A DNA stretch of 64,000 bases from Psammoneis japonica. Taxonomy: Eukaryota. The notes beneath the pieces were generated by a model that saw only the letters and a list, made by a program, of their open reading frames with translations, was not told the DNA's origin and made no database searches. The translations under genes were made by a program, and so were the position numbers. Within the stretch, counting starts at the first letter, position 1; every line of letters begins with the position of its first letter. The stretch spans positions 248,001-312,000 of the forward strand of contig QPGO01000052.1 in the NCBI GenBank assembly GCA_008632985.1, given 5' to 3'. Below are positions 7,629 to 63,448 of this stretch, piece after piece.

Positions 7629-8322
7629 CGCTCATGCCGCAGTTCTGTCCAAACAATAAACAATCCAACAAGCAGAAGTTAGAGTCTGGTGCTAAGCCGG
7701 AAAACCCGCGTTGTTCAAGCACACACGTTGCGATTTCGTTGTGTTAGTCACGATGAACGAATAAAGTTGATGGGAGCTGGAGGTACTTTTTGGGTTTGCA
7801 ATTTGCGAATACTGACGCAACGCCTCAGGCCTTGTTGTTTGGTTGAACGTATTTGTGCATCACCACGAGGACCTGCTGCTATCATACTGGTTCTTGGCAG
7901 CAAGCTTTATGCCCTCACTTTATCTGATCGTTCTTTGGAAGCTTGAACAGATTCTCCATGCGCCTCCTTTGGCTATGTTTTCGTTCCGCTGACTTTCATG
8001 CAGCGGAAGGATCTTTAAAGCTTTGGCACCGTAGATACATTGAGTCTATCAGAATTGACTTTGTTCCTGCAGTTTCCTGAGTGGCTCTAGTAGCTAGGAA
8101 ATCATCTGCGCATAGAATCATCATCCAACCGCCAACTTGAGTCAGAAGGTCTTTGGCTACACTCAATTGAAACAACGTCAATTGAAGCAACGTCATGGAA
8201 TCGTGGAGCTGTACGGTGAGAGCGATGAGTGACGATTGAGCACTCCACCCGTTGACGTCATTGCCCTTGCAGCCGCCATCCTGGCTTAAAGAAACATATA
8301 GTCGATTTACTTTCGCTTGCTG

Positions 8323-8520
8323 ACTAGAGGTAGGGCCCTACCTCTGTGAGAGCTACTAGGGCCCTACCTTAGCTCATGCAGGTACTCCTAGCTAGCTACT
8401 ACTCTCTACTCTAGTAGCTACTAGCTAGCTAGCTAGAGCTAGCTATGGTACCCTCTCTAGCTACGTACTACTAGAGTAGAGTTTGTCAAGAGAGACGAAC
8501 GAACTAATACTAGTCTAACT
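8323..8520. repeat. CTAG/TAG-rich low-complexity tract with a perfect 20-bp palindrome (8326-8345)
   Basis: AGAGGTAGGG|CCCTACCTCT, a second tagggcccta, and ctagctagctag runs upstream of the 8839 gene. Confidence 0.8.
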
Positions 8521-16095: not shown

Positions 16096-17097
16096 CCTCT
16101 TACAGTCTCGCAGAGAGAAAATGATAGTGTTAAAACGGTAGTGCAAGCGTGTTTGCAAACGTTGCTGGGATTCCGCTTCTTCCTTTCGTGACGGAAATGT
16201 GAGATGCTGAGGTGCACTTGCACTTGCAATGAGAATCCCGCGCGTTTCTGCATGCAGGCAAAGCTTTCTTGGAGCGCTGTTTTCTTTCTCTGAGGGCAAA
16301 CCATGAAGAAAAGGAAGGGGGGAAGACAGGGAGAAAAGAAAGGAGAGGCAGGTCTCCCTTGGTGTGGCAGCATGTGCCATCCTCACACCTGCCAGCTTTC
16401 AGCAGCACACAAGCAGCAGCGTGAAATTTTCGAGCTCTGCTTTCTACTCAGCTCAATCTCACAAATTGCGCTGCTCTTTCTGGCAGCTGCCTGCGGGCAA
16501 GCTCAGTCACACCTGAGTGTCCTTTTAATCCACAGCCATGAAAGGGTTTGGAGCATCATTTGTGTGGAGATGAGCAGCCAGCTGCTGCAGGAGGGAGAGT
16601 GGCAAGAAGCACAAAAACAGCTTTGCTCCCGAGCCCCCCCCCCCAAATCACAAGAACCCTGGTGGTGTTGAACCCATGCCTTTTGGCTGAGAGATCACAA
16701 TGGGGAAAAGGAGCTCTCTTCTTTGCAGGCACTGACACAAAGCTGAGGCCCCATGCACAGTGTGGCCATGGCACCTCAAGGAAAGCACCTGCTTGCATTG
16801 TTGTGGATTTTCTTTTTGGGCTGCAGCAAGCTTTTGCCTGGCACACATGCTTCTCTCCTCTGGAAAGGCTTGCTGCAGCACTTCTTTTTGTCTTTTGGTT
16901 TTCTGTTTTCTCTCTTGAGCTTTCTCTCATGGATCTTGAGGCAAAAGCTTGTGGGGCAACATGCACAAGAGAACACCTGTCCCCACGCGCTGCTCTGTGA
17001 TTGTGGCACTCTTTCTTGCATGCAGCTGGCTGGGGAAAACAGAAGGAAGGGTGCAAACATCTTCTTTTGCAGTGAAGCACACAGCCACTTGCCAGCT

Positions 17098-17570
17098 CTT
17101 GGACTCTGGCCATTGTGGTGTCACAGAAGAAAGGCAAGATCTTCTCAGCTGTTGCCACACAAACATCAACAAATTGTGAGACAAACTGGTGACAAACTGA
17201 AACTTTGCAGAGCTTGGTTGAAGATTGGGCCAGTTTTGGATGACACAGCTGCACTCAACTAAGAAAAAAGCTTTCTTGGTGTGCTGCTTTGGTTCCACAT
17301 GATGTGAGCATGTGAAGCTTCTGGTTTTCCTTTGAACAATCAGTGTGTCCCCCTTTTCTTGCTTGAGACACTTGCCAGTGCTTGGACTCTGGTTGTGGCG
17401 GTTTGCAGAAAGGCAAAATCTTCTCAGCTGCTGCACAGCTAAAACTCAGAAATTGTTCAAAAAAATGGCAACAAACTGTGGCAACTGAAAGTTTGCACAG
17501 CTTGGAGAGAGGGCCAGTTTTGACCAACAAAGCCATGCTCAACTGAACAAAAAAAAGCTTTTTCTTGGCA
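17098..17570. repeat. Degenerate direct duplication of about 190 bp (17098-17282 and 17381-17570)
   Basis: Shared cttggactctgg..gaaaggcaa.atcttctcagctg..gggccagtttt..ctcaact..aaaaaagcttt..cttgg. Confidence 0.75.
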
Positions 17571-18449
17571 CTGTTGCAGAGTGTGGCTGTCACATGTGAG
17601 CATGTGTTGCTGGCCTTTTCCCACAAACAATCTTCCCCATGCACCCCCTTCCTTGCCATTGTTGACAAAAGACAGGCGGGTGAGACACAAGTTGGAGACC
17701 ACTGGGGCCATGGAGCAACAATGTTTTGTGCACAAGGAAATGGCAGCATGTGGAGTGTCCTGCCACCATGGTCATTTTGGGCTAGAAAGTGACTTGCTCC
17801 TGGCCAGCCACTTGCTCCTGGTTCCTCTGTTGCATGAGCTGACCATTTTTCATTTTGAGTCATTGGCGCCTTTTGAGTGCAAACACTTTGTTTTGGTTTT
17901 TTTGTGATCTGTGGTGCCATCAAAAGTGCCTGTGGTTGGAAGCACTGCTTGTGTGCATGGGATGGGATGGGCTCAAACTCTGCATGGCACACCAGCAAAA
18001 TGGTGCATTTTTAGAGTTTTTCATCCCCCACAAGCCAGACCAAGCAGCCATCTCTGTGGTCAAAGTTCTTGACAACAAGAAGATTCTCAATCCTCCTCTC
18101 CTTCTCTGTTCTTTCCTTTTGTGCATGCACAGTTGGCCACACTGCCCTGCACAGACAAGCACCAGCTCCAAGTGAAGCAAGACAAGTGGACAAAGATGGC
18201 TTCCATGCATCAGCAGGAGCTCCCATGAGTTCAACCCAATGTGGTGCACAAAATCTTTGCAAAGTGTGGCTGCAACCACAACATGAAACAAGACACATCT
18301 TGTGTGCCCAATCTCCCCCCCCCCCCCTCTTTGGGAAGTGGAGTTTTTGGGTTGCTTGATGCTGAGCAAGGGGTTTGGCCTAGAGACTTTCCTTTAATTT
18401 TGGATGCTTGGGCTCAGAAGCAGCTGCATTTTGGTGCCAGCATCAGTTT

Positions 18450-19820
18450 TTTGAAGGAAGTTGACACCCCATCATTGCCCTGTGCCAAATGGATGCCTCT
18501 CTCTCTCTGGACATTGATTGCCCTGCTGGCATCCCCCTTCTGCAAAGAAACAATGACCTGCACCATGCCAAGGACATTGTTGCACTGGAATTTTGCAGCT
18601 TGTCAGCTGAGCCACACCAGTCTTGCTGACCCCCAAACTTGCTGCATGGATTGCAAACACACTGCTCTGTGCCAGTTGCCATGTTGTCCTGGTGCAAAAG
18701 CTGAAAAGTGACCACAGCAAGTCCCACCTTCATGGTGAGTTGCAAACATGATTTTGACATGTCACCAACAGTTGTCAGTGTCACTTTCACTTCAACATTG
18801 TCTGTCTGTGCTCCAAAAACTGCATCACACCTGGGTGCTCCAACACAATCACTCCAAACACATGAGCTCTCAATTGGTTGGCCTTGTGTGAACAAACCAA
18901 AGGAGGAGGATGACAGTTGGAAACCATGTCACCTTGCACCATGTCAACTGCTTCATCAACATCCATGGCTCACTTCATCTGACTCCACCTGCAAATGATC
19001 ATTGTCATCATTGAGCAAAGGACAGTCCTTTTTTGCATGCCCAACCTTGTTGCATTTCCAGCACTTGATCTGCTTTTTCTCATTTTGCACAAAGCTTGTG
19101 CCCTCAGGTTTCTTGTTGGCCCCACATGTGTCCAACACCTGCAGCACCTCCTCTTCTTGGCCAAATTGGGACAATTGTCAATCTCCAGTGCAAAAACTGC
19201 TGGTGCAAGTCCTTCAAGATGTGCTGACATTCCTTTTGCACCTTCCATCCATGAGCAGCACTGCTGACAACTTGTTCCTTTCTTTCTTCCAGGTGGCATC
19301 AGCATCCTTGCTGAACCCATCTTTTTTCTTGGCAATTCTTTCAGGACAACCCTTCTGCAGCACCACCCTTCTGCTGTCTCAACAATCCTCATCTGCTGAT
19401 TGCAGCAATTTTGAAGCACCTCTCCTTTGTTCCAAGGAACAAGTGCCAGCTGCTTCCAAGCTTCAACAGCCTGAACATGCAAGCACACTCTTTTGTTTGC
19501 ACTGAACAAGATCAACTTGAGAATTTCCAAACTGGTGCCATCACGCCCAACTCATTTGTGACACTTGCAAACTCCGTCACTCCTTCAACCTTGTGATTGA
19601 TGGCCTTCATGCACTGTCCCACAACACAATCAGTGAGCACCCACATGGAAATGCGCACAGAAATCTGTGATGCTCCTGAAGCATTTGTTGAGGGACATCC
19701 ACAATCCAATCGGCATTTTTGCCTCAAATTTTGCAGCATCACTTGCTGCCAGCACCATCTGACATTCATTGACATGATTGTGACACCCACATGTGCAGCA
19801 CCCAACCTCCTCTTGTTCCA
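18450..19820 (-). mobile_element. Copia-like retrotransposon remnant (gag zinc knuckle plus RT-like fragment)
   Basis: IKCWKCNKVGHAKKDCP CCHC knuckle near 19020-19070; segment 18610-18830 is homologous to 29890-30080. Confidence 0.6.
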
Positions 19821-21369
19821 CAAGGAGAAAGAGCAATGTGTTTGCAGCAGTTGGGGTCTAAAGTGCTGTGAGATCCAAGAGAGCTTTCGTGCTCAAGCCA
19901 AAGCAGGCAAAAATGAACCTTGTGCTGGTTGATGCATGCATCTGCAACTTGGAGGCAATTTGGAAGAAAGCAGAGCAATGGAGAGATGTGGCACTGGCGA
20001 ACCTGGGAATGTCTTGATGATGCAATTGTCAAATTTGGGTCAGGCTCCTGTTGCCAAACATCATTGGACCATCAAGCAACTGTGGTCTTTTGATGGTGGC
20101 AAGAAACCCTCTGCACCACTGCCCTTGGCAAAAATGACAGCTCTGATGAAGGCAGTTGACCTTCAACTCTTTATGAAGAAGGGACTCTTCATGAAAGAGA
20201 GTTCCAACAAGCAACACTTTCACTGTCTCAGTGTCCCAATGAAATCATTGTTGACAGGAAAGACAAGGATGTCACCATGCAGTGAGCGCAAAGATGCACT
20301 TGACATGCACAGGACATTTGCAAAGCTCCAAAAAGGAGAAGCATTGCACAACAAAGAGCGTGAGCCTCCTGAATCAATGGAGTCAGATGTGATTGAAGAG
20401 AGAGAGCTCAGGATGCACAGCAGAAGCTGTCACTCCTCAAACAAAGCAACAGGATGAGTGTGCACGGGAAGTGCAAAGCTGAAGCATCTGATGCTGGCAT
20501 GGCTGAGCCTTTGTGTGATGACCATGATGTTGAAGACTTTGCTGCAGATTTTCTTGACTCAAACTCTGCTTCTCATTGTCAAGAACTTGCATCACCCAAA
20601 TGGCACACTGACAATCCAACAGCATGCAAAGATGTGTTTGGCTTTCACACTTTGGAGGAGATGAAACACAGCATCTTCTGTTTCTTTGTGATGCACCAAT
20701 TCTTGTGTTTCTGACATCCTTTTTGATGGAGATGACAGAAAACTAAAGTGCAATCCAACCAATCTGACACAACTCAAACAGCGGCTGATTGCAAAGCACT
20801 TCATGCAGCGTTGCCCAGTGCACAAGATTGCTGGGTTTGCTTTTGGCATGTCATGACATTCGTCAAAGAGATGCATTGAAAAATTGGTGGGCCAAGCATG
20901 GAGAATTTCTTTTGATTCTCTCCTTGAGCCACATGATTGCTTTGACAAGGAAGTGCCAGACAAGTTCACCAAAGTGCTGCTTGACTTGGTGGTTTTTCTT
21001 TTTGATGGAAAAAACACTCCCACAGAAACAAAACACAAAGATGATGCTGCATGTTGCACACAAGCCAGCTCCAAAATGCACTGTTTGGCACTGCAGTTTA
21101 TGAACTTTGTCACAGCATGTGCACTCTCAAATGAGCACACTTGGGTGTGCAGGGCTGGAGCAGATGAGAACAAATTTGTGTTGTTGAGTGGTGGGTGCAG
21201 AGAAGAGAAAGCACCAACAGAACAGTGGAAAGACTGTGTCGCGCATCATGCATTTCCGGCACCGCAGTGTGCTGAAACATTGGACAGCACTCAATGATTT
21301 GGAAGCAGTCAGAGATTTGCTTGATGCTTTGGTTGAATCAATTGACAGAATGGAGTCAGATGGCAAAAC

Positions 21370-21736
21370 TGCACTGTGCTCGAAGAACGAGTGTAAACGA
21401 AAGTAGAATAGTGTACGAAAAGTGGAAATTATGAGATTGGATTTTACTCTGTGATTTTTGGTTTCTCCGAATGAGTTCTCAATGGCCTAAAGCTTCTGTG
21501 CTGCTTCTACAGACAAAAGGCCTTTCGGAGAATATAATCGTGACAACAGATAGTCCGAATACGATTGCTTTTGACACATAAGATGTCAGCATCGTCTATC
21601 GATCGCATTTGCGATTTTCGACTTCCGATCAACTCTGTGTGATCGTTCTGTCCTTCGCACGCATCCACGACTGTGGCACGATTGACATGTAAATAACACA
21701 TAATCACACATATGCACACAACAGTCGCATGCTGCA
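21370..21736 (-). repeat. 3' LTR of the gypsy element (TA-converted copy)
   Basis: Ungapped alignment to 25637-26003 with 14 substitutions. Confidence 0.95.
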
Positions 21737-24700
21737 TTCGCCTCCCTAATTGCACATTAGAGTCATTTGTTAAGTGGATTATTCGACGGATGTTGACAGT
21801 GTCAACAATGTCTCCACGTTCACTGCATTGTGCCATCAGTGATGACTGTTGTCGTTTTGTGTGGGCCATGTGGGGCCGTTCCAATTTCTGAATGTCTCAT
21901 GAGAGTGACATCGTTTGTTTCTCACTTTGTGTGTGTGCATGTGTGGTGTTACGTCGAGTGTTCTCGTTGACGTTCTTTGTTGACATGAACACAAGGACCA
22001 ATTGTCCTGCAGTGTTTTTCATGATGTCGATTGTACCTGGCATTGTGCCCAGTGCTTGATGTGCGCTCTTTTAATTGTTGTGGCGTTCACTTTGCTTGTG
22101 GAGTTCATGCAGTTCTGGCTGGCTAACTTCACATGTGCCACATTGCTCTGCTGCACTTCCACGTGTCGTAAGCAATTGACGATGGTCAAGGACATTTTCT
22201 AACCATTTCGTCTTGACAATCCTGGGATGGTCATGGACTCCTTTGTGGATTTCTTCATTGCTTCAACCATCTTTCCTTTGGATTTTGATCGTCATTTGGA
22301 CGTTTCTTTTTTGACATGCCGGTGACATTTCGTCATTCCGAAGGCACTGCTTTTGTGCACTGTTCGGATGAATGTCCATTTTTGTGTTTTGTTTCTGAAT
22401 CTTTGGCACATCTCGTGTGACGTCATTTGTGTCTTGCCTTGCACATCGTACATTGCAATCGTGCGGGTGCTGTGAGATTGTCTTTTGCCAATGTGAAGCA
22501 GGCACGTGTGATGTGCACCAATCTGTCACTGATTTTTTCTTTAACCGTCCCCAAACAAGGCGATTTTTTCCTTATGACATGAGCATTTTTGATCTCGCTC
22601 GCCTCCACGAAAAGTGTTCGTATGACATGTCGCGCCCGACAATTTGGAGGAAATGTCTTTGTCCCGTTTTGTTCAGTGTCGAGAACTTTGCAATTTAACG
22701 GAAAGACATTGTCGCAGGATTTTGGTGGGACCTTTTCAGCCAACTCTTCTGTGCTGAGGTTTTCCACAGGTTCTATTTTTTTTATGGCAAGTCGGCTGAT
22801 CGCTCTTGCGACGACGTTCGCCTTGCCCTCGATGCATTTTATTTCGGGACTGGAATTCTGCATTCTAAGTCGTCAACGCATGACTCTGTCCGTTGTGTGT
22901 TGTGAACCGTGTGTGTGACAATCTGTTGGCCAAACAGTGTGTTCCGGGAATTGTTGAGTGTTTCCACTGTGGACAGAAGTTCTTTTTCCGTTGTGACTTG
23001 AACATTGCAATGCCATGTTTGACAATGACATGGTTTTTGATGTGATGCGCTCCACATTTTCGGAGACTTTTCGTTCTGTACTTGTCCTTTTGCCGTTTGA
23101 CCTTTGTTGAGGTGGATTTGGCTAGAAATGTACAGGAGATCATTGAGACTGCATGTCTTTGTGGCAGCAACATGTGTGGACAAGCTGTCGCAATTTTCTT
23201 TGCGTTTTGCTCAATGTTGCGATTGCCAGAATCGCCTCCATTTTCTTTGTAATTGGATGCACACCGTTACGTGTGGAAGTCTTGATAATTTTTTTCAAGT
23301 TAAGCAGTGAAGGACTTTTGTTTGTCAACCTTCAAAGCGACTGTTCTGGTCGTGTGAACGCCGTTTCAAGTTTTTCTTGTGCAGGTGACATTTTGAAGTT
23401 ATTTTCTGTCAGGTGTAAATGTTCATTCTTAGTCGTTCTGACAACTCCAAACCTGCCATGAGTTCACTCATGCGTTGTATGAAAATACATGGGGCTCCAT
23501 GGATTCTTGTCGGAAGTCTGCAGCACTCATTTTCCCCCACGGCATCATTCTGATGTGAGCACGACGTGTGCTTTTTGATTTTATATCGTGGTGTTCCATG
23601 ATTGAATCGTAATTTCATTTTTAAAACTTCAATCTTTCATAATTGGTTAAATTCCTTTCAAATGAATGCCTCCAAAGACTGTGACAGGAGAAGGTTCTCA
23701 CACGTCGTGGAATCGCGTCAGATTTTTTCACAGCGAGATCCATTGATTCTTTCAATTCATTTGTCCAAGGAACTTTTCAAAAGGATTTCAAACCTCTTAA
23801 GAAGGAGACTGAGTGGTTTATCTTCTTTTGGTTAAGATGTATTGCTGTAGCTGTCACTTGATTAGAATCGACGGCGTGATAATGTGAGTCGAGAACCATC
23901 GGTCTCGTTATTAACTCTATTCACCGCGTAATATTTTTCAATGTGATCGGCATTCAGCTGGAACATTTCTGTATCGAAGAGTGCATCAACATTCTTCATA
24001 GGGTAATTGCTTCATTCCCATTTGATTTCTTCAATTCCGTAGTCTAGTATGATTGCAAAACTGGACATTAAGTCGCGTCCCATGATCATATCATTCGACC
24101 TTGAAGGGTATTTGGTGTTATTGACATATACTGTTTGAATATCAGTAAGTCTTAAATTCGCGTACTGAGAACTGAATTCGGTGTTTACTATCAGTCGTAA
24201 AGAGCTCACCCTTGGTTTCCCAAGTTTTTTGGTGGCGGATATCTTGGTTCTCAACTTTGCACGATTTTGCGTAAAATCATGGGCTGACGATGTTCTTTAT
24301 CGAGAGAACACGTAGAAGCTTATTTTTTGCTTTTCTCAGAGAAGTAGTCATATAGACAGCGAGAATAGGACTCGTATAACATACTGTGATGCTTTTTCTG
24401 GGTTTCCAGACGTCCTGTAACGCGTTATACTCCTTGAGCGGTATAAATTTTTGATCGGACTCGATCGGGTCAATTTTTCTAAATTGATAGTTTTATTCGT
24501 TAAGCGTTTTAGAGTCTTAATTTTCGCTCTTATTTTTACGTTCCTTTATCGAGGAACTCGCTTTAATTGTTTTTGTGAACTGCCTAGTTCATAGTTCAGT
24601 TCAATTCCTCTTTCACAGAGGTATTTCTGCTCTCGTCACGTTCGCGTGCGATTGCCATTTAGAGCGTCGTATTTTTGGGTCTCTTTTAGAGCCACCCTTG

Positions 24701-25636
24701 CACTCTTTCGCTAATTCATTTTCAGAATAGCTTTAATCCGTGATGTAGGTATTCTTTTTTCAAAGATTGGACCTTTTATTCACTTTGGATTGTGGTGGTA
24801 CCATATAGGAGACCATTTTTGGAACCAAAATTGGAACCTTTTTGATTGTGGAATCAACTGCGCTATCAGAGCCCGAATTGATATGTTTTTTTGTCATAGA
24901 CGTCCTTGCCGACCTCTAGACGACTCAAACCTCAATCAGCTCGTAAAGGGTATGATCCAGTAGTTCAATATTTTGGACAGTAGGCTGATGCTGCCATCCT
25001 TGCGGTGCGAGTGATAGCTGATAAATCAGCGCTCGGTTTCCCGCTAGATTCGACTTAGAATCCATCTGAGGGTCGTATAGACTCTCATCGTTGACCTCTT
25101 GGGTCTATCAGAGGCTTTCTTGCTGTTGAGCGGCTCTGGTTTCTTCAGGTCGTCTCGAAAATAATTTCCCTGATTCTGAAGTGCATTTCCTCGGAGGACA
25201 TGAGTTATGAGACGCTTGAGGTACTTTCCAACGATTCCCTCTTGCTCCTTGGACTCGAGGATCATCGATTCGGTCTCAAAAAACTCTCCAATAGTCTCTC
25301 CTTGCATGGTAGACGTATTTCTCGGATCTGATCGACTCGGAACTTGCATTCTCTGCAACCATGACTTGGTGTAGATTTTTTGATAATGCGGTGTACTTGA
25401 GAGCCCTTGATCCTTGGGTGCTTGGAATAGACCGTATTAGAGCGAATCCTCTTGTTTGGTAGACGAAAAACAGCGTTCCATCTTGAGGTACTGCTCGGCT
25501 TGAGCTTCTTCCGCTCGGAAATCGATTCCAGCAGAACTGATGCGATTCGTTCCTGTTTATAGAAGAATTTGCAAAGGCACATTAGTTGAAATTTTCATTT
25601 TCCGTACTTTTTACCTTCTGTGGTGTGTATACACAA

Positions 25637-26003
25637 TGCACTATGCTCGAAGAACGAGTGTAAACGAAAGTAGAATAGTGTACGAAAAGTGGAAATTATG
25701 AGATTAGATTTTACTCTGTGATTTTTGGTTTCTCCGAATGAGTTCTCAATGGCCTAAAGCTTCTGTACTGCTTCTACAGACAAAAGGCCTTTTGGAGAAT
25801 ATAATCGTGACAACAGATAGTCCGAATACGATTGCTTTTGACACATAAGATGTCAGCATCGTCTATCGATCGTATTTGCGATTTTCGACTTCCGATCAAC
25901 TCTGTGTGATCGTTCTGTCCTTCGCACGCATCCACGACTGTGGCACGATTGACATATAAATAATATATAATCATATATATGTATATAACAGTCGCATACT
26001 GCA
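25637..26003 (-). repeat. 5' LTR of the gypsy element (TA-retaining copy)
   Basis: Ungapped alignment to 21370-21736. Confidence 0.95.
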
Positions 26004-26217
26004 AAACAGAAAATGGCACAACCAAACACACTCAAGCTGTTGAACATTCTCAAGAGTCTGGAAATGCCCCTGTCAATCACATGAGTGCAAGCAGCCAAAA
26101 AATTGAATGCTCTGAGAAATCTAAGAACAGCAACAACTCTTTGAGCACTGATTGCGAGTCTGACTGGATGGACATGACCAATGGCTGGAGTGAAAACAGC
26201 ATTGTGACAATGTCCTC

Positions 26218-26790
26218 TGCAGAATCCAGCACCAACAGTGATGGCCAGGAAGTTTCAAAGTGTGACAACATTTTTGTCAAGTGTGATGAATGGCTCATTG
26301 AAAGAGTTGGGACAGTTGTTGAAAAAGGAGAAAGCTCAAAGATGCTGGAGTTGACAAGGTTGCATTGCTTGTCAGTGAAGACCAAGCCTTGTTGAGGTTT
26401 TAAATGAAAAGGCATTGGCTTGCTCACTGCAAAATGATCCAGAGTCATTTCTTCAGCAACTTGAGCCATTTAAGAGACTCTGCAGGCTGTGCAACTCTTG
26501 GCCACTGCAGAATCCACCACCAACAAGGATGGCGTGAAAGTTTCAAAGTGTGATCCTGTTTTTGCCAAGTGCAACAAATGGTGCAATGAAAGAAATGAGG
26601 CTGTTTGAAAAAGGAGAAAAGCTCAAAGATGCCAGAGTTGACAAGGTTGTGTTGCTTGTCCATGAAGACCAAGCCTTGTCTGAGCTTTTAAATGAAAAGG
26701 CATTGGCTTGCTCACTGCAAAATGATCCAGAGTTGTTTCTTCTGCAACTCAAGCCATTTGAGAGACTTCACAGGCTCTGCAACTCAAAGG
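26218..26790. repeat. Tandem duplication of about 288 bp within the DDE pseudogene
   Basis: tgcagaatcca..aagtttcaaagtgtga..gaaaaaggagaaa..ttttaaatgaaaaggcattggcttgctcactgcaaaatgatccagagt occurs twice. Confidence 0.85.
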
Positions 26791-27288
26791 CCATCTCTGG
26801 CAAAACATGGTGAGTGCCCATTTTGAAATGAAAAAGGAGCATTGCTGGGATCTTCTTTGCTGGATGGGAAGCAAACTGACCCCACCAATCTGCAGAATGC
26901 ATGACCCTGAGTTGCCTCCAGAGGTCCACTTGTGCCTGCACAAAATCCTGCCAAACAAAGAAGAGCTCAGCAACAAAGGATCTGAGAAGACAGAGCACTG
27001 TTTTCCACATTTCCATTGAGTGTGCATGCCTCAAGTCTTGCCACCACAAACCATCAAACAACAGCATGACGAGCTTGAACTTGGAGACAAGAAGGATGTT
27101 TGCAGGGCATGGCTTCCAATGATGGTCCCTTTTTCTTGGCTTGTTGCTGTTGATGGTCTCCACAACAATGCCCCACACCATGAAAATCTTTGTGTCATCA
27201 TTCCACACATGTTGAAATGGGGTGCACATGGAAATGAGCCTTGGAGCACCACTCCAATGGCCAGGAGGGGCTGACAGGGGTCTTCCTG

Positions 27289-29196
27289 TCAATTGCTGGG
27301 ATTGAGAATTGTGCTGCGGCTCAAAAAAATTGTCAACATTTGATCTGCAATGGTTGCTTCCCATTTCCTGCTGCTGCACTTTGCCTTCTCTTGCACCATC
27401 ATCAGCTCCATCAAGAGTGGTGCTTTGTTGATTGGAGATGGGGGCATTGTTCTTTCAAAAGCATCTTTGTTGGCACAACACTGCATTTGGTGGAAAATGA
27501 AAAGTGCGCGAGAGTGTGCAAGCACACTTCTCATCTGTTGCAGCATCCACAGCACAAAAAGGGGCATGACAAAAATTGATTTGCATCAGCATCAAAGCCA
27601 ATTGCAGCATGTGGCCTTCTTGTGCCTTCTTTGCTCCCCTGATTGCAGATTTGATGACACTGCTTCTGTCTTCATGGGTGGAATGCAATGAAGTTTGAAC
27701 AGCTGCACAAAATTGCCTTCAACAAACATTTTGCAGATGCAAAGCTCTGTTGCATCAATGAGCAAACCACCACCTTGCAACAGCAGGAAACCTTGTTTGA
27801 GCTCATGTTCATTGCCTTTTTGGTGAAAATTTTCAACCAAGCTTGGCAGCATTGAATCAAGCTCTGACACACAATCACAATGACAACAGCATTTGTTGAT
27901 TGATGTGAAATGTCTCACAGCTGACTCTAATTCTGACTCATCCCCAAAAACAGGGTGTCCAAGTTGAGCAGATGCCCAACACTGCAACACAGTGGTTTGC
28001 ACACACATGGAATGGGAGCCACTTCAAAATTAAGATGTGCGTGCAATGGGAGTTCTTTTTCACAATGACAAAATTGCTCATTCTTTAATGTGTTGTAAAG
28101 AGGAGCCAAAAATTTCTTGCTCAATGGCTCGCCATTCAAAAAGGTGGGCCCTTCAAACTGCTGTGCCAATCAACAGTCTGTGATGGCATCAGGTGGCAAC
28201 TTGAAAGGGTCAAAGCCAACAGCTTTGCCCCACAAAAAAGCAGGAGAATTGCCTGTCTTTTCTTCCAATGGATTCAGTGGAACAAGATTGTGATGTTTGT
28301 CAAGGACCGGGCAGTGCAAAAATGGTGCCGCTGCCTTGTCAAAGTTCTCCACACAGCCTGCTGGGATTGCAGCCTGTCCAAAGGCTTTCTCACCAACTTG
28401 CGCTGCAGTGCCTTCAGACCAATCTGTGCTGGCAAGCCTTGGAAGGATGCTCTTGAAGATTCTTGAAAACCCTTGGTGGCTGCAGTTGTCTGAGCCAAGA
28501 AGATTGGTTGTCGCTGAAAAGCATTTGAAGTCATGCACTGCAATGGGACAATTGGCAGGCAATTGGCCCCTTTTGTGCACTTTCCATGCACCATCAAACC
28601 ACAGATCAACCTTAAAACAAAAACAACCTCAGCCCCCAGAACAACAGTGTCACCATCCTCTCCATCATGACACTGTTGATTCAACCGTCTGCCTCCATTT
28701 TGATGAGTTGTTAGTGCTTGGCCTTGCGTGCAGAGCATTCATGTTGGACTCCATTGCCAATCATCTGTTCTTTGACCAACAATGTTGGGTGAAAGGTCAG
28801 ACCAATCTCTTGCTCTTTGCAGTGATTGGCACTGGTTGACCTCGGCAATCATGTCACCAGCTTTTCTTTTCTTTGTGCAGTCATCCATCCATGCATCTGC
28901 TTTTGCCATCTTGTTGTCCTTGCCACACTCTTCATTGGATGTCTTGCCCCATCAAAAATGTGAAAAAGAGATGCCCCAGCTGAGACAAGCTTGTTGTGCA
29001 TGGATTTGGCTGTTGCCAACAAACTTTTTGGCAGATGCAGTGGCTGTGATGGGAGGCACAATGCACAGTGGCATGTTTTGTGAAGCCTCGCCAATGTGTT
29101 GATCCTGGTTCTTTTTCCACTGGCATCAGCAAATGGTGCAGACTGCAGCTTGTTGACATTGCCAACAGCTTTGACCCATGGGTTGCCAATTCCCAT
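27289..29196 (-). pseudogene. Exo1/XPG (Rad2)-family nuclease pseudogene with C-terminal SWIM-like zinc finger, convergent with the DDE gene
   Basis: MGIGNPW..GKRT.IN...RLHK, HIFDGARHPMK, QLIKMEADG, EDGDTVVLGA and LLGSDN follow the XPG-N, XPG-I and H3TH motif order; a Cys/His cluster near 27510-27570. Confidence 0.78.
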
Positions 29197-29889
29197 TGCC
29201 TGTGCATTGAGGTGTTGTGGAGTGATGTGCAGAAGTGCAGCATCAAGGCATGCAAAAACGAGCTTCAGTTGTGGATGATGTCTCTCAATTTTTTTCATGC
29301 ATCACATCTGCACCCTTGCTGCTGCTCACTGCTTCAAATGCCTTTGCTTTCTGTGTCTTGTGGATTGTGCCCCATTTCATGAGGTGATTGCATTGATTGC
29401 CCAGATTGCCTTGTCTTTCTCCAGTGTGGTTGCACCTGATGGATGTTCCAGCTCCTCTGATTTGCTCTTCTGCCTCACACACCAGTGCCTGCATCTCTGG
29501 CCTGAACACTCGTCCAACATGATGCTCATTTGCTTTCCTCTCATGGCCTCTGTGCATCTGCCATCCTCTGCCCTCTGCCTGTCATCCTGACTTGGCAATG
29601 ATGCCGCACAGTCACTCCTTCAAATCTTTTGTGCTTCCATGCTCATCAGCTGTGTCCTCACCCCGCATCAATGTTTCCCCTGGTCTGACACAACTTTGCC
29701 ACACCTTTTTTCAACAGACCCTTCACAGCTTTGTCACAGCAAGGTCCTCCAGAGACTGTCTGTTCACTTGCTTCATTGAGCCAGTTTGCTTGCCACAATC
29801 TGCTGGCATGAGCTCTGCACCTTTGGATTCTTGATGACTTTCCAGCCAGCCTTTTTAGCTTCAATGTTGATGGAATTTTGTGGCTTGCC

Positions 29890-30080
29890 AACTGATCTGT
29901 GCCAGCCTTGCTGCCCCCCAAACTCACCACCATGGATTGCAAACACTGCTCTGTGCCAATTGCAATGTCATCATGATGGTGAGTTGCAGGTGTGATTCCA
30001 CCACATGTTGCTGACAGCCACTGGCATTGCTTTCACCACTTCAATGTTGTCTGTCTGTGCTCTGAATTGCGTGTCACACC
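29890..30080 (-). repeat. Dispersed repeat homologous to 18610-18830 (probable copia RT fragment)
   Basis: Shared catggattgcaaaca..ctgctctgtgcca..atggtgagttgca..ttgtctgtctgtgctc. Confidence 0.65.
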
Positions 30081-30679
30081 CAGATTTTTCAACACTTCAT
30101 AAAAGTTGCGAATCTTCTTGTGTGCCACCAATGTGGACAACTCAGTTGGAGCTGGGCCTTTTGAAAGAGGCCATTGGCACAACCCCTCCACTGGCCAGCA
30201 GCGCATGACCTGCCTCTGTGCATGCTCCCTTTTGACCTTCCTCTCTTGGAGCAAGAGTGACGGGAGCCCTCTCTGGCCAGACTGCTGGGAAGCAACAGAG
30301 ACAGGCATGCAAAGTGTTTTGCTGTCTGAGTGCATTGAAGCCAGCATGAGAGCCTCTGGGGGATTGGTGGCTGGCTCCTCCTTCCAAAATGATGCGAGGA
30401 GCACAATCCTCTGTGTGTGCTGCTCACTCCAAGAGAGCAACGACACCAGCACTTGTTCCCCAAGCTGAGTGGCTTCGAGCTTCACCCTGTGTGCTTGGCA
30501 ACACTTTGAATCCACTCAGGAAAGTGAGCACGTGTCTTTTCCTTTGGGCTGTTCAATCCCAACTCCCAACTGCTTCAACAAGCAAACTTTATCAGCTTCT
30601 ACATGACTGAAGACAATTTTAACCTCCTCGCATTTTGTGCTTCAGCCACTTTGCGGAACGAATGCGGCACCCATAGCAC

Positions 30680-35472: not shown

Positions 35473-38400
35473 AGCGAAGTCGCAGGATAGAGACAAGAGC
35501 GAACTAATTCTAAGGAGGTCGCTCAATGCATGCAAAGTGTCATGTTGTGCTCTGTACTCTAATGTAGTCCACTTACTCATAGCCTCTCCTCCAGGCGGCA
35601 GCGTGTGAAAAATAAGAACACCAAGCACTCCTGGCCGGGGAACTCTCACTGACAGAAGATGCAAAGCCGTAAAGTAGCTAGATGTCCCTCTCAAGATACA
35701 AGTGTGCTTAGCAGTCTCTCTCTACTAGAAGTAGTACGCTCTACAAGAGTAGAGGCCTGCTGTTGATCAGCTCGAGTATGTCCACCTTCGGACAGATGCC
35801 AAACGCTTGTGCCTCTTTACTTCACCGTCTCAACCCTCGAAACCCGCCTTTTCTTTTGTGACCGACAAGTCATTCTTTGTTGTTGCAACAATGACAGCAA
35901 CAACAAGCTGTGATGGAAGAAGACAGGCATGCCCCTCTCCACTCTTCTCACACACAGCTCTGCATCCATCATGGTGGACCATGCATCTCCCTTCTTGGGG
36001 CAGCATGTGTGGTGTGGCAGTGTTGTGTGTTGCCTGGCAGCATCTTGGCATGAGTTTGGTTTCTGCAAACTTGTGCTGCAATTAAGCCACTGTTGCTCTT
36101 TGTCTCAGGAGCTGTGCTGGCATCTGTGATGAAGAGCATGGTGACAACAAGGTCGCAGCATGGTCCGGCAAGTTGTGCAGCCCGCTGGGTGGGCACAACA
36201 GCCAGCTTAAAATGACCCACACATCCTGGTGGGGTGCAGCAATTGGCAGGTGGCAAAAGGCTGCACAGTGCTGATTTGGGAGAGAAGCCAAGTTTGGGCT
36301 CCTGTTTGGCCAAATCAAAGTGCAGTCAGTCAAACCTTGTTCGCCACAGCTCCACCATGCACTCACTTTCAGGTGTCCCTCCTGAGGGCGGTCCACCTGA
36401 GCGAAACAGCACAGCATCAAGCAGTGCTTGTTGGGCAGGTTGTGTGCTCCTTTCTTTCCTTGTTTGCATGACCTTGACATGTTTTGGCATGATTGGGGGG
36501 TTGAAGAACCCCGCCCTCTGCCATGGCAGCAGGTTGTCAATTTTGAGCAGCTGATGGTCTGCCAGTTGTGGAGAAGGGACTCACATGGCATTGGCAATGT
36601 GGCGGGCATTGTCTGGTCATGTTCCTGGCTGCCATGCTCAGGCACCATGCATGGTTCCCATGATGCACATGTGCTGCACTTGAGCAGTGACTCGCACTTG
36701 ATTTTCAGCTCATGCTGTCTGCTCTTTCCTTTTTTTTGGCCCACTCAATGTCCTGACAAACAAGAATTTTTCAATCCACAGTCTGCGCAGTGCAGGGCTC
36801 ATTTTTTTGTGACATCTCAGCAGCTCAAGGGTGACTGTGCTTGATGGCTCATGGTGGTGACAAAGCCTCTCCTCATCAACCATGGATTGGATGATGCTGA
36901 TCCCACCAAAGACATCTCACAAAAATGTTCTGCTTTCTGGCAGCACAGAAATTTCTGTTGCCACAGAAAAGCACTCCTCAAACCACTGCTGCAGTTGCAG
37001 GGTTGTTTTCAGCTGAACAAACAATGGACAAAGACAAGCATCTCTTCCACCTTCAAGAAATGTTCAAAAGAGTGTCAAGATTGTCAAGCAACATTTTGTG
37101 ACAAATGTGTGGAGAAAACATCTTCAACTTTGCTCTTTCCACTTTTCACAAGCACATGCCCCGCAAACCACTGTGGATGAATGTCCCAGCTCCACAGTGC
37201 TCTCATGCAAGAAACACATGAACAACCCCCACCCACTCTGGGTGTGTGCAACAAAGCAAAGGCCACTGCACTTGCAAAGAAAAAAGATGCACAAATCAAG
37301 TTCTTGTCACCATGTTTTGAGCCAAGAGGAACAGATGTGCAGTTGTGGTGCCTGCCAAGAATGGATGCCAGGCAGATGGAGCTTTAGATTGTTGCTTTTG
37401 TGATCATGTGTCAGTTCATTGTCTTCTGATGCAGATGTGACAAAGCTTCAAGAGATTGAACAGATGTGTGCATGTGAAGCACAGTTGGCACAGCTTCACA
37501 GAGACACAGATGCTGGGTGGAACAACATTGTGTTGAAACTGACCAAACCTGAGTGCTGCCTGTTGCATGATCAACGCTGCTCCTGTCAAAAACAGTGCAC
37601 CACAGTTTTTGACAGAGCACATGCAAAGCCTGCAACTGGGGTCCACCTGTTTTCAGTGGCAGCAGCTCTTGTTTTTCTGAGAAATTTGCAGCCAGCATGA
37701 CTGCCGCGCCATTGAAAGGGTGCCTTTTGTTGTTTGTCAGCTGCCCACCGGTGTTCATTCTGTGCACAGCTTGTCAATGATCATTTTCAATTTTTCTTCA
37801 AAAGCCACCAATTCAAGACACTGCTGTTGCTTGTGTGATGACACATCATGTGCAGCACATTTGTGTGGCACACAGATGGCAGTGTGGCAGTGGCACAAGT
37901 GTTTCTGTGCAATGCAGGTCAAGAACAAGAGAGCAAAGCTGCCTCGCAACAGAGAACCTTCTCTTGAGACACATGTCATGTTTTGTCATCTTGCACTTCA
38001 AATGTGGTTCAAATGGCAAATGCTGTGTTTGTTGCATGTGAGCTGGCAGCACTTTTTGTTGTGCATCTTGCACACAACAATGACAAATGAGGGTGCTGAT
38101 GAGCCAAGATCAGGAAGAAAGAACTGCCCCTTTAAGACAGAGCATGCTTTGTTCATCCTGCAGAACAGCAACTTAAAACTTGACCACATTGCTCTGAAAA
38201 GGGTGCAAACACACATTTTGTGAGGGTGCATCATCTCTCCAGGCATTTCTTGATGCTGTCAAGCAAGAGGAGGACATTGAGGCTGGCACTCCCAGGTGGG
38301 TCTGCTTGTCAAGTGTTGCACTGCTGGCAGCAACCAGTGGAAAATGTTCTGGGCAGGAGTTGAGAGATCTTTTTTTCCAACCAACCCACTGGCTTTGGAG

Positions 38401-38790
38401 CCATTTTAAGATGTGCTCCAGCTCTGGGTGAGACCCTGCGCTGCTGGACTTTGATGAACATTTTTTGATCATGCACTGCACACACATTTCTGTGCACATG
38501 CTTTTTCACATGCCGGGCAAATGGTGCCAACTTGAGCATTCATCGAGTTGTCTGATTGCAGATTGCATTCCATGCACTCTCTGGAGTGTTGGCATCATGC
38601 AATGTGTGCTGGTGCAATGCTGTGTCCATGGTGATGCAATGACAGGAAGACAGATGTTCACGCAAGTGCTTGCAGATTGTTGCCCCTGGCAGTCAGCAGG
38701 TCATCAGTTGTGCATTGCATCACAGTTTTAGACAACAAGCCCATTCAAGAGCTCTGTCAGAATGCCTGACTGCACACTGCAAGAACAAAC

Positions 38791-41700
38791 TGACAATGTT
38801 TGCCAGCATGTTTGGACTGATGGAGAGTTTGGTTGTTGCAGCAAAGCAAATTCACAAATTGTGAGTGGAGGAGCAATCTCCATTTGCACTGAGCATTGAA
38901 TGGATCCCCTTTCAACACTCCACAGAGGGATTCTCCTGAACATTTTGCAGTCACTTGAAATTGCAGTCAAGTCCGCAATGCCCTCATGACTGAACATCTT
39001 CTGAACATCTTCTGCCAATGTTGTCAACTTGAGCATGATGTTGTTTGTTTGACACTCCCTCTTGTTCAGGACATTGGGCAGCTGCCCTTGAAAATGAGCC
39101 AGCCAATCAGATGCCTGCAATCTGAACAGGTTTTTGGGCACTTGACACCCAGCAGACATTCAGCAAGTCCTGCAAGTGCCACCCACCCATTGCCAGAGGA
39201 TGCAATGAGAGAAGAACATCTGCACCCACCAGTTTTGCAAAACAATCAACAAGTTGCTCTTTGTGGCCAGCACCAATGGGATGGATTGACATTTCTCTCC
39301 TGGATGCACAGTCCCTAAAAAGGCAGAGTTTTGCACTCAAATGTTTGGTTCTTGGATGGTGCTTGTGGGTCTTTGCAATTTCCAGAGCACTGCTGTTGTC
39401 CTCAAACATGTGACAATGAACCATTGGCTTGCAGGCATGCACTGGGAAGCCATTGTGCTTCATTTCCTCAAGCAATTCTGCAAGTGAGAGGTGTTGCACT
39501 CCTCAATGCATTTGACAAGCCATTGTGCTCACTCTTGGTTGAACTCAAAATGCAACCTCTGTTTGAAGTTGAGATTTCCAAAGGATGAGACATCTGGCAC
39601 ATGCACAATGATGTGTCCACATCTGGACCTGGCAGCATCACAACCAGCAGCTGCCTCTTGAGGATTCTAGTTGCTGCTTGAGTTGTCATCAACATGTGCT
39701 TCTAAGTCTGTGCCCTCTTGGGGTTCAAGCACAGTGCGTTTGTCTCTTGTGTCTTTGAGACAGCATTCTGGCCATTTGAGTGCTTGACCATTTTCATTTT
39801 GGGGTCTGCCATGAAACTTGAACATTGGTGGGGGGTGCCTGCAATGTCACTCCTTGTGGCCTTTTCCAGATGATTTAGTTTGCCATTGATGGATCTGCTC
39901 AGTTGCTTTGTCTGTCAAACATTTTGGAGTTGGAGTGCCTGGATGGCAATTTTGACGATGAGGCTGGAGTGTCCTTGGACTTTGCACAGCCACCATGAAG
40001 CTTCACGTCCTTTTGCATCTGGTCAATGAGGTGTGGTTGTGCAAGATGCAAGGTGCCATCACTTTTTCTTTTGATGTTGATGCCAAGGAAGTCTTGTGCA
40101 TGTCCCTCTGCCATGATGTCCAGCTTGGTTGCCTTCAGTTCCTTGATGGATTGATTTTTTTGCCTTGACAAAGCACACACACTTGTTGACCTTGGACTGA
40201 GTGAAGCTGGGCTTCTTTGTCAACTTGTTGACCATGCATTTGTTCCATGCTCATCTGGCTTGTTTCTGCCCACACAGGCTCCCATGCAGGCACAGTTCAA
40301 AGTCTTTTGAATCACCTTGATCAATTTCAAATCTCTTTTGGAATCTGCTTGTAAATTTTGTGCTCTGTTGGAGCCTGTGGGAAGCCCCCACACATGATCC
40401 AGCAGCTGCTTGACATGCCAATTGTGCACTGCTGCCAAGGCATGTGGCACATGCATTGAGTTCTGGGGTGCAAGTGGGGCATGTGTTTTGCTGCAGTCAA
40501 TCCCTCTGAGATGGGCAATTTGTAACATGGTGTGGAGAGATTGCTGCCAGTTAAAAATCTGTCCCTCAACATCCCCTTTGGTGCAAGCACCAAGCTCAGC
40601 TGTCAGAACTTGTGCCAACTGCTCAACTGATTGGCTCTGTTGCCCTGATCTTGTGTCACCTCTGTTGCCCTGGGCACACTGGGCAGATCAAACTTGCAGG
40701 TGCTTCTGGAGATTTTGCCTGTTGATTTGGCTGCACCAGCAGCAAACCAACTGCTGCAGCATCACCACCATGCTCATCAGCTTTGGGTGGCCCCAGTGTT
40801 TTGTTGAAATTTTTAACATGGCTTGCATTGGACCTCTCCTCTTCTTTGATGCTCCCTCCAAGGGAGGCATTGCTCCCTCTTGCTGAGGAATGCTCTGCTT
40901 GTTGAAAGCTTCAGGTGTGAGTGGCATCTTGTTCTTGCCTTGGGTCGGCTCATTTGCCTCCCTTTGACTTGTGAATCTCCTGGCTTTTGTTTGCCAAATT
41001 GAACCAAATTTGTCCTTTTGATCAATTGGAAGCTGGGGTCATGCTGCACATGGAGCTGGGGACTTGTGTGTGCTGTTGCTCTTTTTGGAACTAAGGAGAT
41101 AATTTTGCCACACATCAGGCTTGTCCCCAAGCATGTTCCAACCCTTGAGCATTGCTTCCTTTTTGTGACATTGACAGTCTTGGTTTGGAGCTGGTGGCTG
41201 GTCATCCAGTGCATGCACTGGGCATCCAAATGGGATCCAGTTCATGAGATTGCTTGAGATGTCTGTTTGCATGTGTGGTTGAGTCAGAGTGTGGTGCTCA
41301 GGATTTTGGAAGCTGGGCATTTCATTGACTGCATTGTTTGCTGTTTAGATGGCACTTGGCAGCAACACTCAAGGGCCATTGTTGGTTGGCATGCATGAGC
41401 ATGCCATGGGCATGTTCCTGCAGCTCATGGATGCAGCATTCAGCAACAGCATTCATGTGGTGTGTGTTGATGCCTGCAAATGTTGGGCCTTGTCCTTGGT
41501 CCTGACATGCTTGAACCCATTGCTTTGCCTTTAATGTCCCATCATCTGCATGGCAAGCAAGGATTTTGTCTCTGCAACTTCTCACCATCAACTCAAAAGA
41601 TTTCTTGCCTTCTGATGTCTTCTCCATGCTCATTGCTGTCTTTTGCAAATGCACATGGCAGAAGTGGGAGCATTGGTCAACACATGCTGTCACATGCTTG

Positions 41701-44700: not shown

Positions 44701-44978
44701 GACAATGTCAGCCAGTGTGTTTCAACTGATGGAGAGTTCAGCTGCCACAGGAAGAAAAATCACAAATTGTGAGCACAGAGCAGAGCAATTTTCCACTCAC
44801 TTTGAGGAGCATTGAACGGATCACTTTCAATGCTCAATGGAGGAATTTGGAACATTTTGCAGTCCCTTCAAATTGCAGTCAATCAATTCACAGGGGCCAT
44901 TGGTCAAATGTCCACAATGTCCTCATGACCAAACATCTGCCAATGTTGCAACTTGAGCATGATGTCATTCATTTGACA
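38791..44978 (-). mobile_element. Ty1/copia (CoDi-like) LTR retrotransposon, near full length, heavily mutated; LTRs approx 38791-39054 and 44700-44978
   Basis: Diverged TG..CA LTRs, PPT (ctccctc on + at 39055), TGG-starting PBS next to the 5' LTR, integrase VSMDQ..ACHADDG..TFAGINTHHMNAVAE, RNaseH FEDNSSALEIAK..PRTKHL. No intact TSD found. Confidence 0.88.
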
Positions 44979-45049
44979 GAGAGCACAATGTTTTCAGTGT
45001 TGTCTGTTGCCACACATGGCAGCAGCTTCAAAGCTGTGTTGTTTGTGCT

Positions 45050-46990: not shown

Positions 46991-47269
46991 CAGCTCCAAC
47001 CAATGGCTGATCAGGCAATTCTGGCGCAAAAAAGGGCAGGTCCCGCCCCCATCCAGGCGAAGCCTGCATGGACACGCACTGTGCACTTGAACACCTGTGT
47101 CGTCGCGGCGCGCCAAAAATTTTTGCCGCGGCGGTCGACGGTCGCGCGGCACCGCCGCATCTCCTTGCTCTGCAAGCAGCAAGCAGTGACAGGTGACAGC
47201 GTGGCGGGTGTTCTCGTTGTTGTGCAGTGCTGTCTTTGTTGTGTCTACTCCCAGTTGTGTGTGTGTGCG

Positions 47270-50785: not shown

Positions 50786-50826
50786 TGTGCGCATTTTGTG
50801 CGCATTCTGTGCGCATTTTGTGCGCA
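50786..50826. repeat. 11-bp tandem repeat (tgtgcgcattt) about x3.5
   Basis: Read directly from sequence. Confidence 0.85.
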
Positions 50827-51194
50827 GGCCTTGCACGCGGCATTTTGATGTGTTTCAGGACAAACCTGTTGTCATGCGTGGGACTCCTTCTTCAGCTGGA
50901 AGACAACAGTTCTTAAATGCAGACAATTTGTGACAGACACACTCATTTGTTCAGCTTGCGATCAGCAGCTGGCTGGGCTTGGCCCCGCAGCCTTGCTGCC
51001 TGGGTGGCGCAGCCAGCAGCTGTGCACTTCCCGCTGGGTGTCTTGCCTTGAAGCTCTTCACAAGCTTTTTCTTGACCAAGCTCTTCACAATGTTTCCTGG
51101 TTTTGGCGCTCATCTTCTGTGCTGCAGAGCGCGGTGCTGCCGTGCTCTTCACCTTCAGAGGGCTGCCGGACGGGCTCCAGCCCTGGGCGGGACT

Positions 51195-62979: not shown

Positions 62980-63113
62980 CATTTAGCTTTCTTTGTGTCG
63001 AAGTGGAAACGACACTTGACGATTTGCACCAACCATTTAGCTTTCTTTGTGTCGAAGTGGAAATGACACTCAACGATTTACACTAACCATTTAGCTTACT
63101 TTGGCTCGAAGTC
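62980..63113. repeat. 54-bp tandem repeat x2.5
   Basis: catttagctttctttgtgtcgaagtggaaa at 62980 and 63034, partial at 63088. Confidence 0.9.
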
Positions 63114-63448
63114 AGACAATGAGATTGGGTTATGGGCTTGTCGTTAACCAGCCACGAGCATGAAATCTTTACCAAAAATCTGATTCAGCGTTCTCCCCCA
63201 ATAAATTTTCTGGAGCGTTACATTTTTCTACGCGCGGTTCTACGGGGCGTGAGCACTCCCAACTGGGAGGTCTGTATGTGGTACGGAAGAGAGGAGTGGG
63301 GCGTGAGACTCCTCCTGCAGTGGGCCGGCGCGAAAAGAAATGGAGAATTCGGGTCGGTGGACAGACGACCCACGACTAACGGAAGTAAATAAATGAAAAC
63401 CAAAAACATCGTCGAGAGTTGTAGAGTTGTTGCATCTCGAAGCGCAAC

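Follow-up and report, generated by a model that had tools for sequence, protein, structure and literature searches.

Why does one part of a young retrotransposon lack TA steps and keep its CG steps, while the rest of the same element keeps both? The question is raised by a 4.6 kb gypsy element of the diatom Psammoneis japonica, situated in a 64,000-nucleotide stretch of contig QPGO01000052.1 (assembly GCA_008632985.1, positions 248,001 to 312,000; hereafter the window, numbered from its first base). Within this element TA has been converted to TG or CA over a patch smaller than the element itself. The change is post-insertion, TpA-specific, bounded, found on both strands, ahead of the loss of CG, and prefers a pyrimidine after the adenine. 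Taken together, these observations are best explained, and with reasonable probability, by a TpA-specific A-to-G mutator of chromosomal repeats followed by a slower decay of CG.

A bounded TA-erased patch in a gypsy element

Composition was followed across the window as the observed/expected ratio (o/e) of TA and CG steps, with pyrimidine–purine (YR) steps as the denominator for Fisher counts. The gypsy interior (21737–25636) lies between two long terminal repeats (LTRs) and contains a broken pol on the minus strand. An earlier description made from the letters without database searches (the sequence-only reading) held that 21.7–23.5 kb is TA-poor with many CGs and 23.6–25.6 kb TA-rich, and this is borne out: TA o/e is 0.24 and CG o/e 0.84 at 21737–23560, and the values are 0.66 and 1.11 at 23561–25636. 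It also placed the boundary at 23.5–23.6 kb and saw a gradient inside the element, and neither point stands. The boundary is near 23.8 kb (support 23569–23833); with a split at 23798, TA makes up 37/512 YR steps on the left and 110/411 on the right (Fisher p 6e-16), and a single step there is better than a logistic ramp by 20 units of the Akaike information criterion (AIC).

An island describes the data best (AIC 398, against 410 for a step and 437 for a ramp, and so ahead by 12 and 39). Fitted without the slowly changing TAA/TTA sites, it extends from 21606 to 23838, with support of 21575–21658 for its left and 23731–23848 for its right edge. Among sites other than TAA/TTA, those that still read TA number 11/238 in this patch, 8/26 to its left and 84/196 to its right; survival values inside the patch are 0.27 (TA) and 0.78 (CG). 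There is no significant trend inside either half (p 0.21 and 0.14), and a slight rise near the right edge has a p of 0.15. A continuous TA gradient is thus rejected by the step and island fits and by the flatness of the two halves.

The right edge of the patch is near the start of the reverse transcriptase (RT), and the patch thus comprises approximately RT, RNase H and integrase together with the inner margin of the 3′ LTR. From this one case we infer that the patch matches the conserved part of pol.

The LTR pair and the direction of change

The LTRs of a retroelement are copied from one template and are identical at insertion, so the differences between them arose later, in chromosomal DNA. 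The 3′ LTR (21370–21736) and 5′ LTR (25637–26003), both in minus orientation, are 367 bp each with TG…CA ends, and they differ at 14 sites, all of them transitions, with no gaps. TA steps have changed at 13 of 31, all in the 3′ (left) LTR and all intact in the 5′ LTR; CG steps have changed at 1 of 21, this one reading TG in the right LTR, and the left LTR has thus lost 13 TA with 0/21 CG changed (TA versus CG, p 0.004). The 13 lost TA steps read CA at eight sites and TG at five, showing that both strands are affected. Adenines in TpA changed at 13/49 sites, compared with 0/115 for ApA and GpA and 0/162 for CpA, ApA and GpA together; ApA alone stands at 0/59, other A/T positions at 0/164, and there are no transversions. 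Such a pair would appear 3.8% diverged although it contains no ordinary substitution.

The distribution of these changes also bears on the proposal that TA loss spreads into the element from one side, which is rejected. The left edge of the patch is inside the left LTR, where the outer 314 nt, adjoining an old repeat block, have lost 4/18 TA and the inner 53 nt have lost 9/13 (p 0.013). The right LTR adjoins an old block too, yet keeps its TA at all 13 differing sites.

Direction can also be read from codons for conserved tyrosines. A motif scan of metagenome assemblies gave 35 gypsy loci (of which L022 is a near-duplicate of L002, with 1 difference in 2888); 22 of them entered the pol profile; the 13 not included have pol frames shorter than 500 aa. 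Of six strictly aligned conserved-Tyr columns in the patch, five read Cys (three) or His (two), whereas only 6/551 such columns do so in the 22 intact, partly related pol proteins; these 551 columns are not independent, as several intact relatives belong to one family. A looser alignment gives 7/12 Cys or His, no Tyr and five other residues. The Cys of EIKCIEGK (22836), previously suggested to replace a conserved Tyr, corresponds to a column with Tyr in 15/19 relatives. For ECCRLP the same suggestion is correct for the first Cys (23525; Tyr in 19/19 relatives) and wrong for the second, which is not in a Tyr column. That the right half keeps its Tyr is only weakly testable, with 0/4 conserved columns reading Cys or His but Tyr itself present in 1/4. 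Together with a TA o/e near the host level in the right half, the change from Tyr to Cys or His fixes the direction as loss of TA, and the occurrence of both Cys and His again indicates that both strands are affected.

TA loss relative to CG loss across the window

Gene-rich host stretches of the window have a TA o/e of 0.61–0.63 and a CG o/e of 0.96–0.98. In the repeat blocks TA o/e falls to 0.01–0.07, and TG and CA are raised to 1.6–2.0. The contrast between host genes (0.61–0.63) and repeats (0.03–0.24) limits the depletion to bounded mobile DNA, with some TA loss spilling over into gene flanks. In windows of 400 bp (159 in all), both steps were kept in 71, TA alone was lost in 31, both were lost in 57 and CG alone in none.

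The blocks singled out by the sequence-only reading behave as it described. Those at 47.0–48.2, 50.4–52.6 and 55.2–57.7 kb are TA-poor with CG kept (TA o/e 0.11, 0.13 and 0.03; CG o/e 1.03, 0.87 and 0.59), and the region at 38.8–46.9 kb has lost both (0.05 and 0.07). The first belongs to an edge zone at 46835–48765 and the second to an edge zone at 50409–52623 with survival of 0.16 for TA and 0.97 for CG; the third contains a DDE-like transposon copy (55559–57655, plus strand) with one frame of 699 codons and a single internal stop. In the old repeat block (38800–46834) survival is 0.09 for TA and 0.06 for CG, and old blocks in general have values of 0.06–0.09 and 0.06–0.12. A further edge zone at 16142–16498, upstream of the presumed start of an N-acetylglutamate-synthase-like gene, retains 1 TA and 13 CG among 77 YR steps.

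Two repeat pairs point the same way. The segment at 48013–48185 reads CA or TG at 8/9 TA of its TA-keeping paralogue at 63827–64000 and keeps 5/6 CG; adenines changed at 8/10 sites in TpA and 1/71 elsewhere, and TA changes number eight in one partner and none in the other. The two DDE-like transposon copies are both TA-free, and only the frameshifted copy at 20.5 kb has also lost CG: 16 CG of the 56-kb copy read CA or TG there, with one in the opposite direction, which is the CG-to-TG/CA change that decay of 5-methylcytosine (5mC) requires. This one pair favours a time order of TA, then CG.

The offset could instead be spatial, with a TA mutator whose territory is wider than CG methylation and with TA-poor, CG-rich blocks that are simply unmethylated. 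TA fronts do extend 0.35–2.2 kb beyond CG fronts at 4/6 outer block edges (TA/CG in kb: 16.14/16.50, 48.77/46.84, 50.41/52.62 and 62.98/62.60) and coincide with them at 30.6 and 35.8 kb, so position may account for part of the offset. However, the gypsy element lies deep in a block that is CG-depleted on both sides, yet its LTR missing 13 TA has 0/21 CG changed, and of the two transposon copies it is the less decayed that keeps CG (one pair only). A purely spatial offset is a real possibility that we nonetheless rate below an even chance, and it is not exclusive of a time order; both may hold. The claim that two processes converge on TG/CA with TA loss the faster is upheld in part: the processes are separable and TA is ahead (13/31 versus 1/21 in the LTRs), but earlier and wider are not separated. 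TA loss goes first or reaches further, with age and position entangled.

Two other accounts of the offset are rejected. CG is not kept through TA turning into CG by double hits, as the four window pairs have 1 double and 24 single changes. ApT is a known 6-methyladenine (6mA) mark, and decay of 6mA at ApT is rejected by an AT o/e of 0.88 over the window.

Loss of CG has a context of its own. In the old blocks at 16499–21369, 26004–30450 and 35900–46900 the surviving CG avoids A/T flanks, with TCGA at 1/96 compared with 114/1168 in genes, suggesting that CG loss is context-dependent too. With TAA and TAG being lost from the erased blocks, long open frames arise there in all six frames.

Sequence context and strand pattern of the edits

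Surviving TA steps are enriched in TAA/TTA (27/37 in the patch, 45/109 in the right half and 55/60 in old blocks). Sorted by the base 3′ of the edited adenine, the four window pairs have changes at 0/20 TAA, 3/13 TAG, 8/22 TAC and 13/39 TAT, a preference for a pyrimidine (TAY) over a purine (TAR) with p 0.007. Two metagenome pairs behave similarly, with 48/173 TAY and 30/186 TAR changed (p 0.01).

Strand bursts were tested at four distance limits. Neighbouring changes within 30 nt tend to be on the same strand in the window pairs (p 0.025), and on pooling they do so in 38/52 cases compared with 26.9 expected (p 0.0005), a result driven by L002/L003. These values hint at strand-coordinated bursts.

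Related elements in metagenome assemblies

Conserved Tyr reads Cys or His at 9/15 columns in metagenome locus L010, 6/11 in L029, 6/14 in L002 and 4/24 in L003, and most other conserved residues are intact. Changes in L010 and L002 were polarised with two outgroups: TpA-to-G changes number 19/70 in L010, compared with 11/312 at other NpA, and 15/46 in L002, compared with 18/183. Most metagenome pairs have no TpA excess. Judged from their sequences, metagenome gypsy copies appear to carry a milder form of the TpA signature, and its presence in unrelated assemblies indicates that it is not only an assembly quirk.

Two loci, both examined whole, have CG patterns of their own. L019 (1292 bp) is in the reverse state: its CG o/e is 0.09 and its TA o/e still 0.69, which means that another genome has lost CG in a place where it has kept TA. 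The intact L005 (5333 bp) has patchy CG, with CG/YR of about 0.3 over one 1.2-kb stretch and 0.02–0.13 elsewhere.

Element architecture, insertion and neighbourhood

The interior was taken as gypsy in the sequence-only reading, an assignment that holds: by tblastn it is collinear with the pol of L007, which has the order protease, RT, RNase H, integrase by Pfam. Broken pol remnants within the patch (21780–23600, minus strand) contain several frameshifts, stops and deletions, with conserved Tyr reading Cys or His, and are recognised by tblastn and profile matches to intact metagenome pol. These matches locate remnants of RT (about 23537–23134), RNase H (about 23120–22760) and the integrase zinc finger and C-terminus (about 22680–21780), all on the minus strand. 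The TA-keeping part (23840–25636, minus strand; TA o/e about 0.7, CG about 1.1) includes a protease region (about 24176–23979, minus strand) and is otherwise presumed to be gag or leader, 'gag' being assigned from position alone. Fragments of the broken pol used as protein queries gave no match, PDB searches gave one chance match and one blank, and Pfam gave nothing beyond RT_RNaseH at an E of 0.048 and chance matches. No intact gag-pol is present, stops, frameshifts and deletions occurring throughout the interior.

The element resembles Ty3/gypsy elements in its TG…CA LTR ends, 4-bp target duplication, purine tract before the 3′ LTR, and order of protease, RT, RNase H and integrase. It differs in being only 4.6 kb long, internally deleted and frameshifted, and hence non-autonomous or dead. 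Frameshifts, stops and deletions are abundant even in the TA-rich half, while the LTRs have no indel or ordinary substitution, a combination that could reflect a non-autonomous family or read errors. Beside the 5′ LTR (25617–25636) there is a 12-bp palindrome and no obvious tRNA primer site; self-priming as in Tf1 is one possibility.

The 4-bp target-site duplication (21366–21369 and 26004–26007) was read directly off the sequence. Both flanks align in order with a single other repeat copy, at 55.4–57.7 kb, pointing to a single insertion into an older transposon, a DDE-like copy that has lost both TA and CG, is frameshifted, and lies on the plus strand at 20026–21234 (left part) and, collinear with it, 26391–27004 (right part). 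The element is unlikely to be a chimera of two independent insertions, because the target duplication matches and the flanks are collinear. The label DDE_Tnp_4 is an Atlas lead at 0.87, obtained on the 55.6-kb copy and used as a lead only. One public DNA run contains 0.58 of sampled words of 21000–26400 and two others contain next to none; this was not used as evidence.

Several features of the surroundings are observations in their own right. The old transposon includes a 288-bp tandem duplication (26211–26785) whose copies differ partly by reciprocal TG/CA swaps. The regions at 46900–48800 and 63000–64000 are two copies of a coding repeat that is rich in GC and contains short tandem units of Ala/Val/Pro; one copy is TA-erased and the other not. 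The gene at 14.7–16.1 kb has named relatives from Phaeodactylum, Attheya, Fistulifera and further diatoms, and the TA loss with CG retained at 16142–16498 ends ~50 nt upstream of the codon at which the N-acetylglutamate-synthase-like gene presumably starts. Among host genes at 8001–8500 TA is locally in excess (o/e 1.25), and AG/CT is high there.

Proposed mechanism and alternatives

In the explanation we favour, a host process would turn TpA in chromosomal repeat DNA into TG or CA, A:T to G:C, on either strand, and would act in bounded kilobase-size patches that approach saturation before other changes accumulate. Loss of CG would be a second, slower process, most likely deamination of 5mC made by DNMT5, catching up in old blocks. 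The components of this scheme differ in strength. The patch was probably mutated in place, and by analogy with known diatom methylation the CG loss is likewise likely to be 5mC decay. As to the chemistry, a TadA/ADAT-like enzyme may deaminate adenines while the DNA is transiently single-stranded, a suggestion for which we see the chances as evenly balanced. Choice of the patch by homology or small RNA is tentative, and is suggested by its match to the conserved part of pol and not to distance from old DNA. As a whole rather unlikely, if attractive, is the wider proposal that diatoms and other microbial eukaryotes have a homology- or small-RNA-guided DNA adenine editor that strikes kilobase patches over the conserved pol of new retrotransposons, in same-strand TAY bursts to saturation, before and independently of CG decay: a mirror image of the repeat-induced point mutation (RIP) of fungi, in stramenopiles and Rhizaria.

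Several results weigh against a TpA mutator acting ahead of CG decay. At the 23798 split, CG/YR is 84/512 on the left and 87/411 on the right (p 0.07), a difference that is not zero, and TGA stands at two conserved Arg columns of the patch; CG has therefore decayed there to some extent. Erosion of Tyr is seen in just 4 or 5 of the 35 metagenome loci, the lowest TA o/e among all 35 being 0.48; the polarised lead of TA over CG is weak in the metagenome family (34/116 versus 4/34, p 0.044), and in the unpolarised comparison of L003 to L010 the two are about equal (CG changed 11/25, TA 25/57). A processive editor should leave its changes clustered on one strand, and such clustering is seen unevenly: p is 0.08 by order alone, L010/L028 lack it and none is visible in old blocks. 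The interior also has many frameshifts and the LTRs none, a contrast for which such a mutator does not account.

Among alternatives to mutation in place, the patch could be a gene-conversion tract or recombinant segment from an already TA-erased family copy, in which case the mutator is real and the edges are recombination points. Two sharp edges, a flat level inside, and an interior more decayed than the LTRs are in keeping with this. But the 53 LTR nucleotides in the patch differ from the sister LTR at TA alone, four further TA changes are in the outer LTR, and a donor that had lost 73% of its TA and retained most CG would still require TA-first mutation; a crossover between two loci is opposed by the target duplication and the collinear flanks. 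We regard conversion as unlikely.

A single dual-specificity deaminase acting quickly on A in TpA and slowly on C in CpG would make CG loss something other than passive 5mC decay. CG does fall to an o/e of 0.07–0.11 in old blocks, in the same territories as TA, and the Bigelowiella preprint discussed below (10.64898/2026.01.13.699255) cites ADAT2 enzymes with editing activity on A as well as C of DNA. However, the hot regions reported there have 230/231 new mutations of the A:T>G:C type (10.64898/2026.01.13.699255), and diatom transposable elements (TEs) are reported to be CG-methylated (PMC9998398). With fronts of TA and CG loss up to 2.2 kb apart as well, this alternative seems quite improbable.

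Very doubtful, too, is a lesion on thymine instead of adenine, an oxidised T leading to T-to-C change in TpA. One such base, 5-formyluracil, pairs with G, and since TpA is self-complementary, sequence alone cannot show which base is struck. Against it, the preference for TAY agrees with the tRNA loop context known for TadA/ADAT enzymes, although one paper describes for one engineered variant only a slight preference for AG and AT over AA.

Assembly or polishing could also have joined mutated with unmutated copies or haplotypes, making the patch a mosaic. The consensus of a repeat readily becomes mosaic in this way, and the interior frameshifts could be read errors. There is no indel between the LTRs, the TpA signature recurs in independent metagenome assemblies, and real TA-erased copies would still be needed, making a mosaic very unlikely indeed. 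Conversion or a mosaic could set the patch edges, but neither removes the mutator.

Finally, three sources of mutation can be dismissed as scarcely credible: patch synthesis by polymerase eta, which changes A to C or G at WA motifs (PMC4686820), is rejected by 0/59 ApA and no transversions in the LTR pair; RIP-like C-to-T change, which likewise pairs TA with CA/TG, is rejected on direction (TA lost, TG/CA gained, Tyr codons destroyed, right-half TA o/e near that of the host) and on the one-sided repeat pairs; and RNA or cDNA editing during retrotransposition, by editors reported to prefer UA (10.64898/2026.01.13.699255), does not account for both strands, for one LTR alone, or for changes in non-LTR DNA and the gene upstream region.

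Comparison with known systems

CG methylation of diatom TEs is reported to depend on DNMT5 (PMC9998398), and diatom small RNAs to map to methylated TEs (PMC4247016); the mutation-accumulation spectrum of P. tricornutum is described as GC-to-AT biased (PMC6604790). DNMT5 methylation followed by 5mC decay explains a loss of CG to TG/CA limited to TE islands but cannot yield TA to TG/CA.

In RIP of ascomycete fungi, C-to-T change at CpA makes TpA, and this context-specific transition hypermutation of repeats spills into flanks. The process described here is alike in being a context-specific transition hypermutation of chromosomal repeats with flank spill. It differs in direction, since RIP makes TpA from CpA and the diatom process erases TpA, and in that RIP is expected to mutate both partners of a repeat, whereas only one partner is mutated in two repeat pairs here.

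In the literature searched, from which subscription journals are absent, there is no report of TpA hypermutation in a diatom; the sole match, and the one precedent for a TpA-specific A-to-G mutator of chromosomal DNA, is a 2026 bioRxiv preprint on a rhizarian alga. Mettrop et al. (10.64898/2026.01.13.699255) report that in Bigelowiella natans the integrated DNA of giant viruses and virophages undergoes de novo hypermutation of the A:T>G:C type at TpA only, at a rate about 1000-fold above background and active in some lines only. An ADAT2-like adenine deaminase is proposed there, not shown, the virus region has a TA o/e of 0.45, and the words diatom, CpG and LTR do not appear in the main text of the preprint (10.64898/2026.01.13.699255).

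At the level of sequence the diatom process seems to work as that of Bigelowiella does, all three of its features being found here: TpA-only A:T>G:C change to TpG/CpA, on both strands, in bounded foreign DNA. Rates were measured in Bigelowiella; here end states alone are seen. The host is a stramenopile, the targets are retrotransposons and DNA transposons, TA o/e is 0.03–0.05 compared with 0.45, the patch is smaller than one element, and CG loss is nested within TA loss. Neither dating by LTR divergence nor TE annotation works in such genomes, where stop codons and tyrosines vanish from dead elements. The gypsy element shows the process half completed in a diatom, and the geometry, order relative to CG decay and TAY context that it reveals narrow the hunt for a natural DNA adenine editor. 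To the Bigelowiella precedent this locus adds a bounded patch in one young element, its nesting with CG loss, and a trace of the signature in unrelated assemblies.

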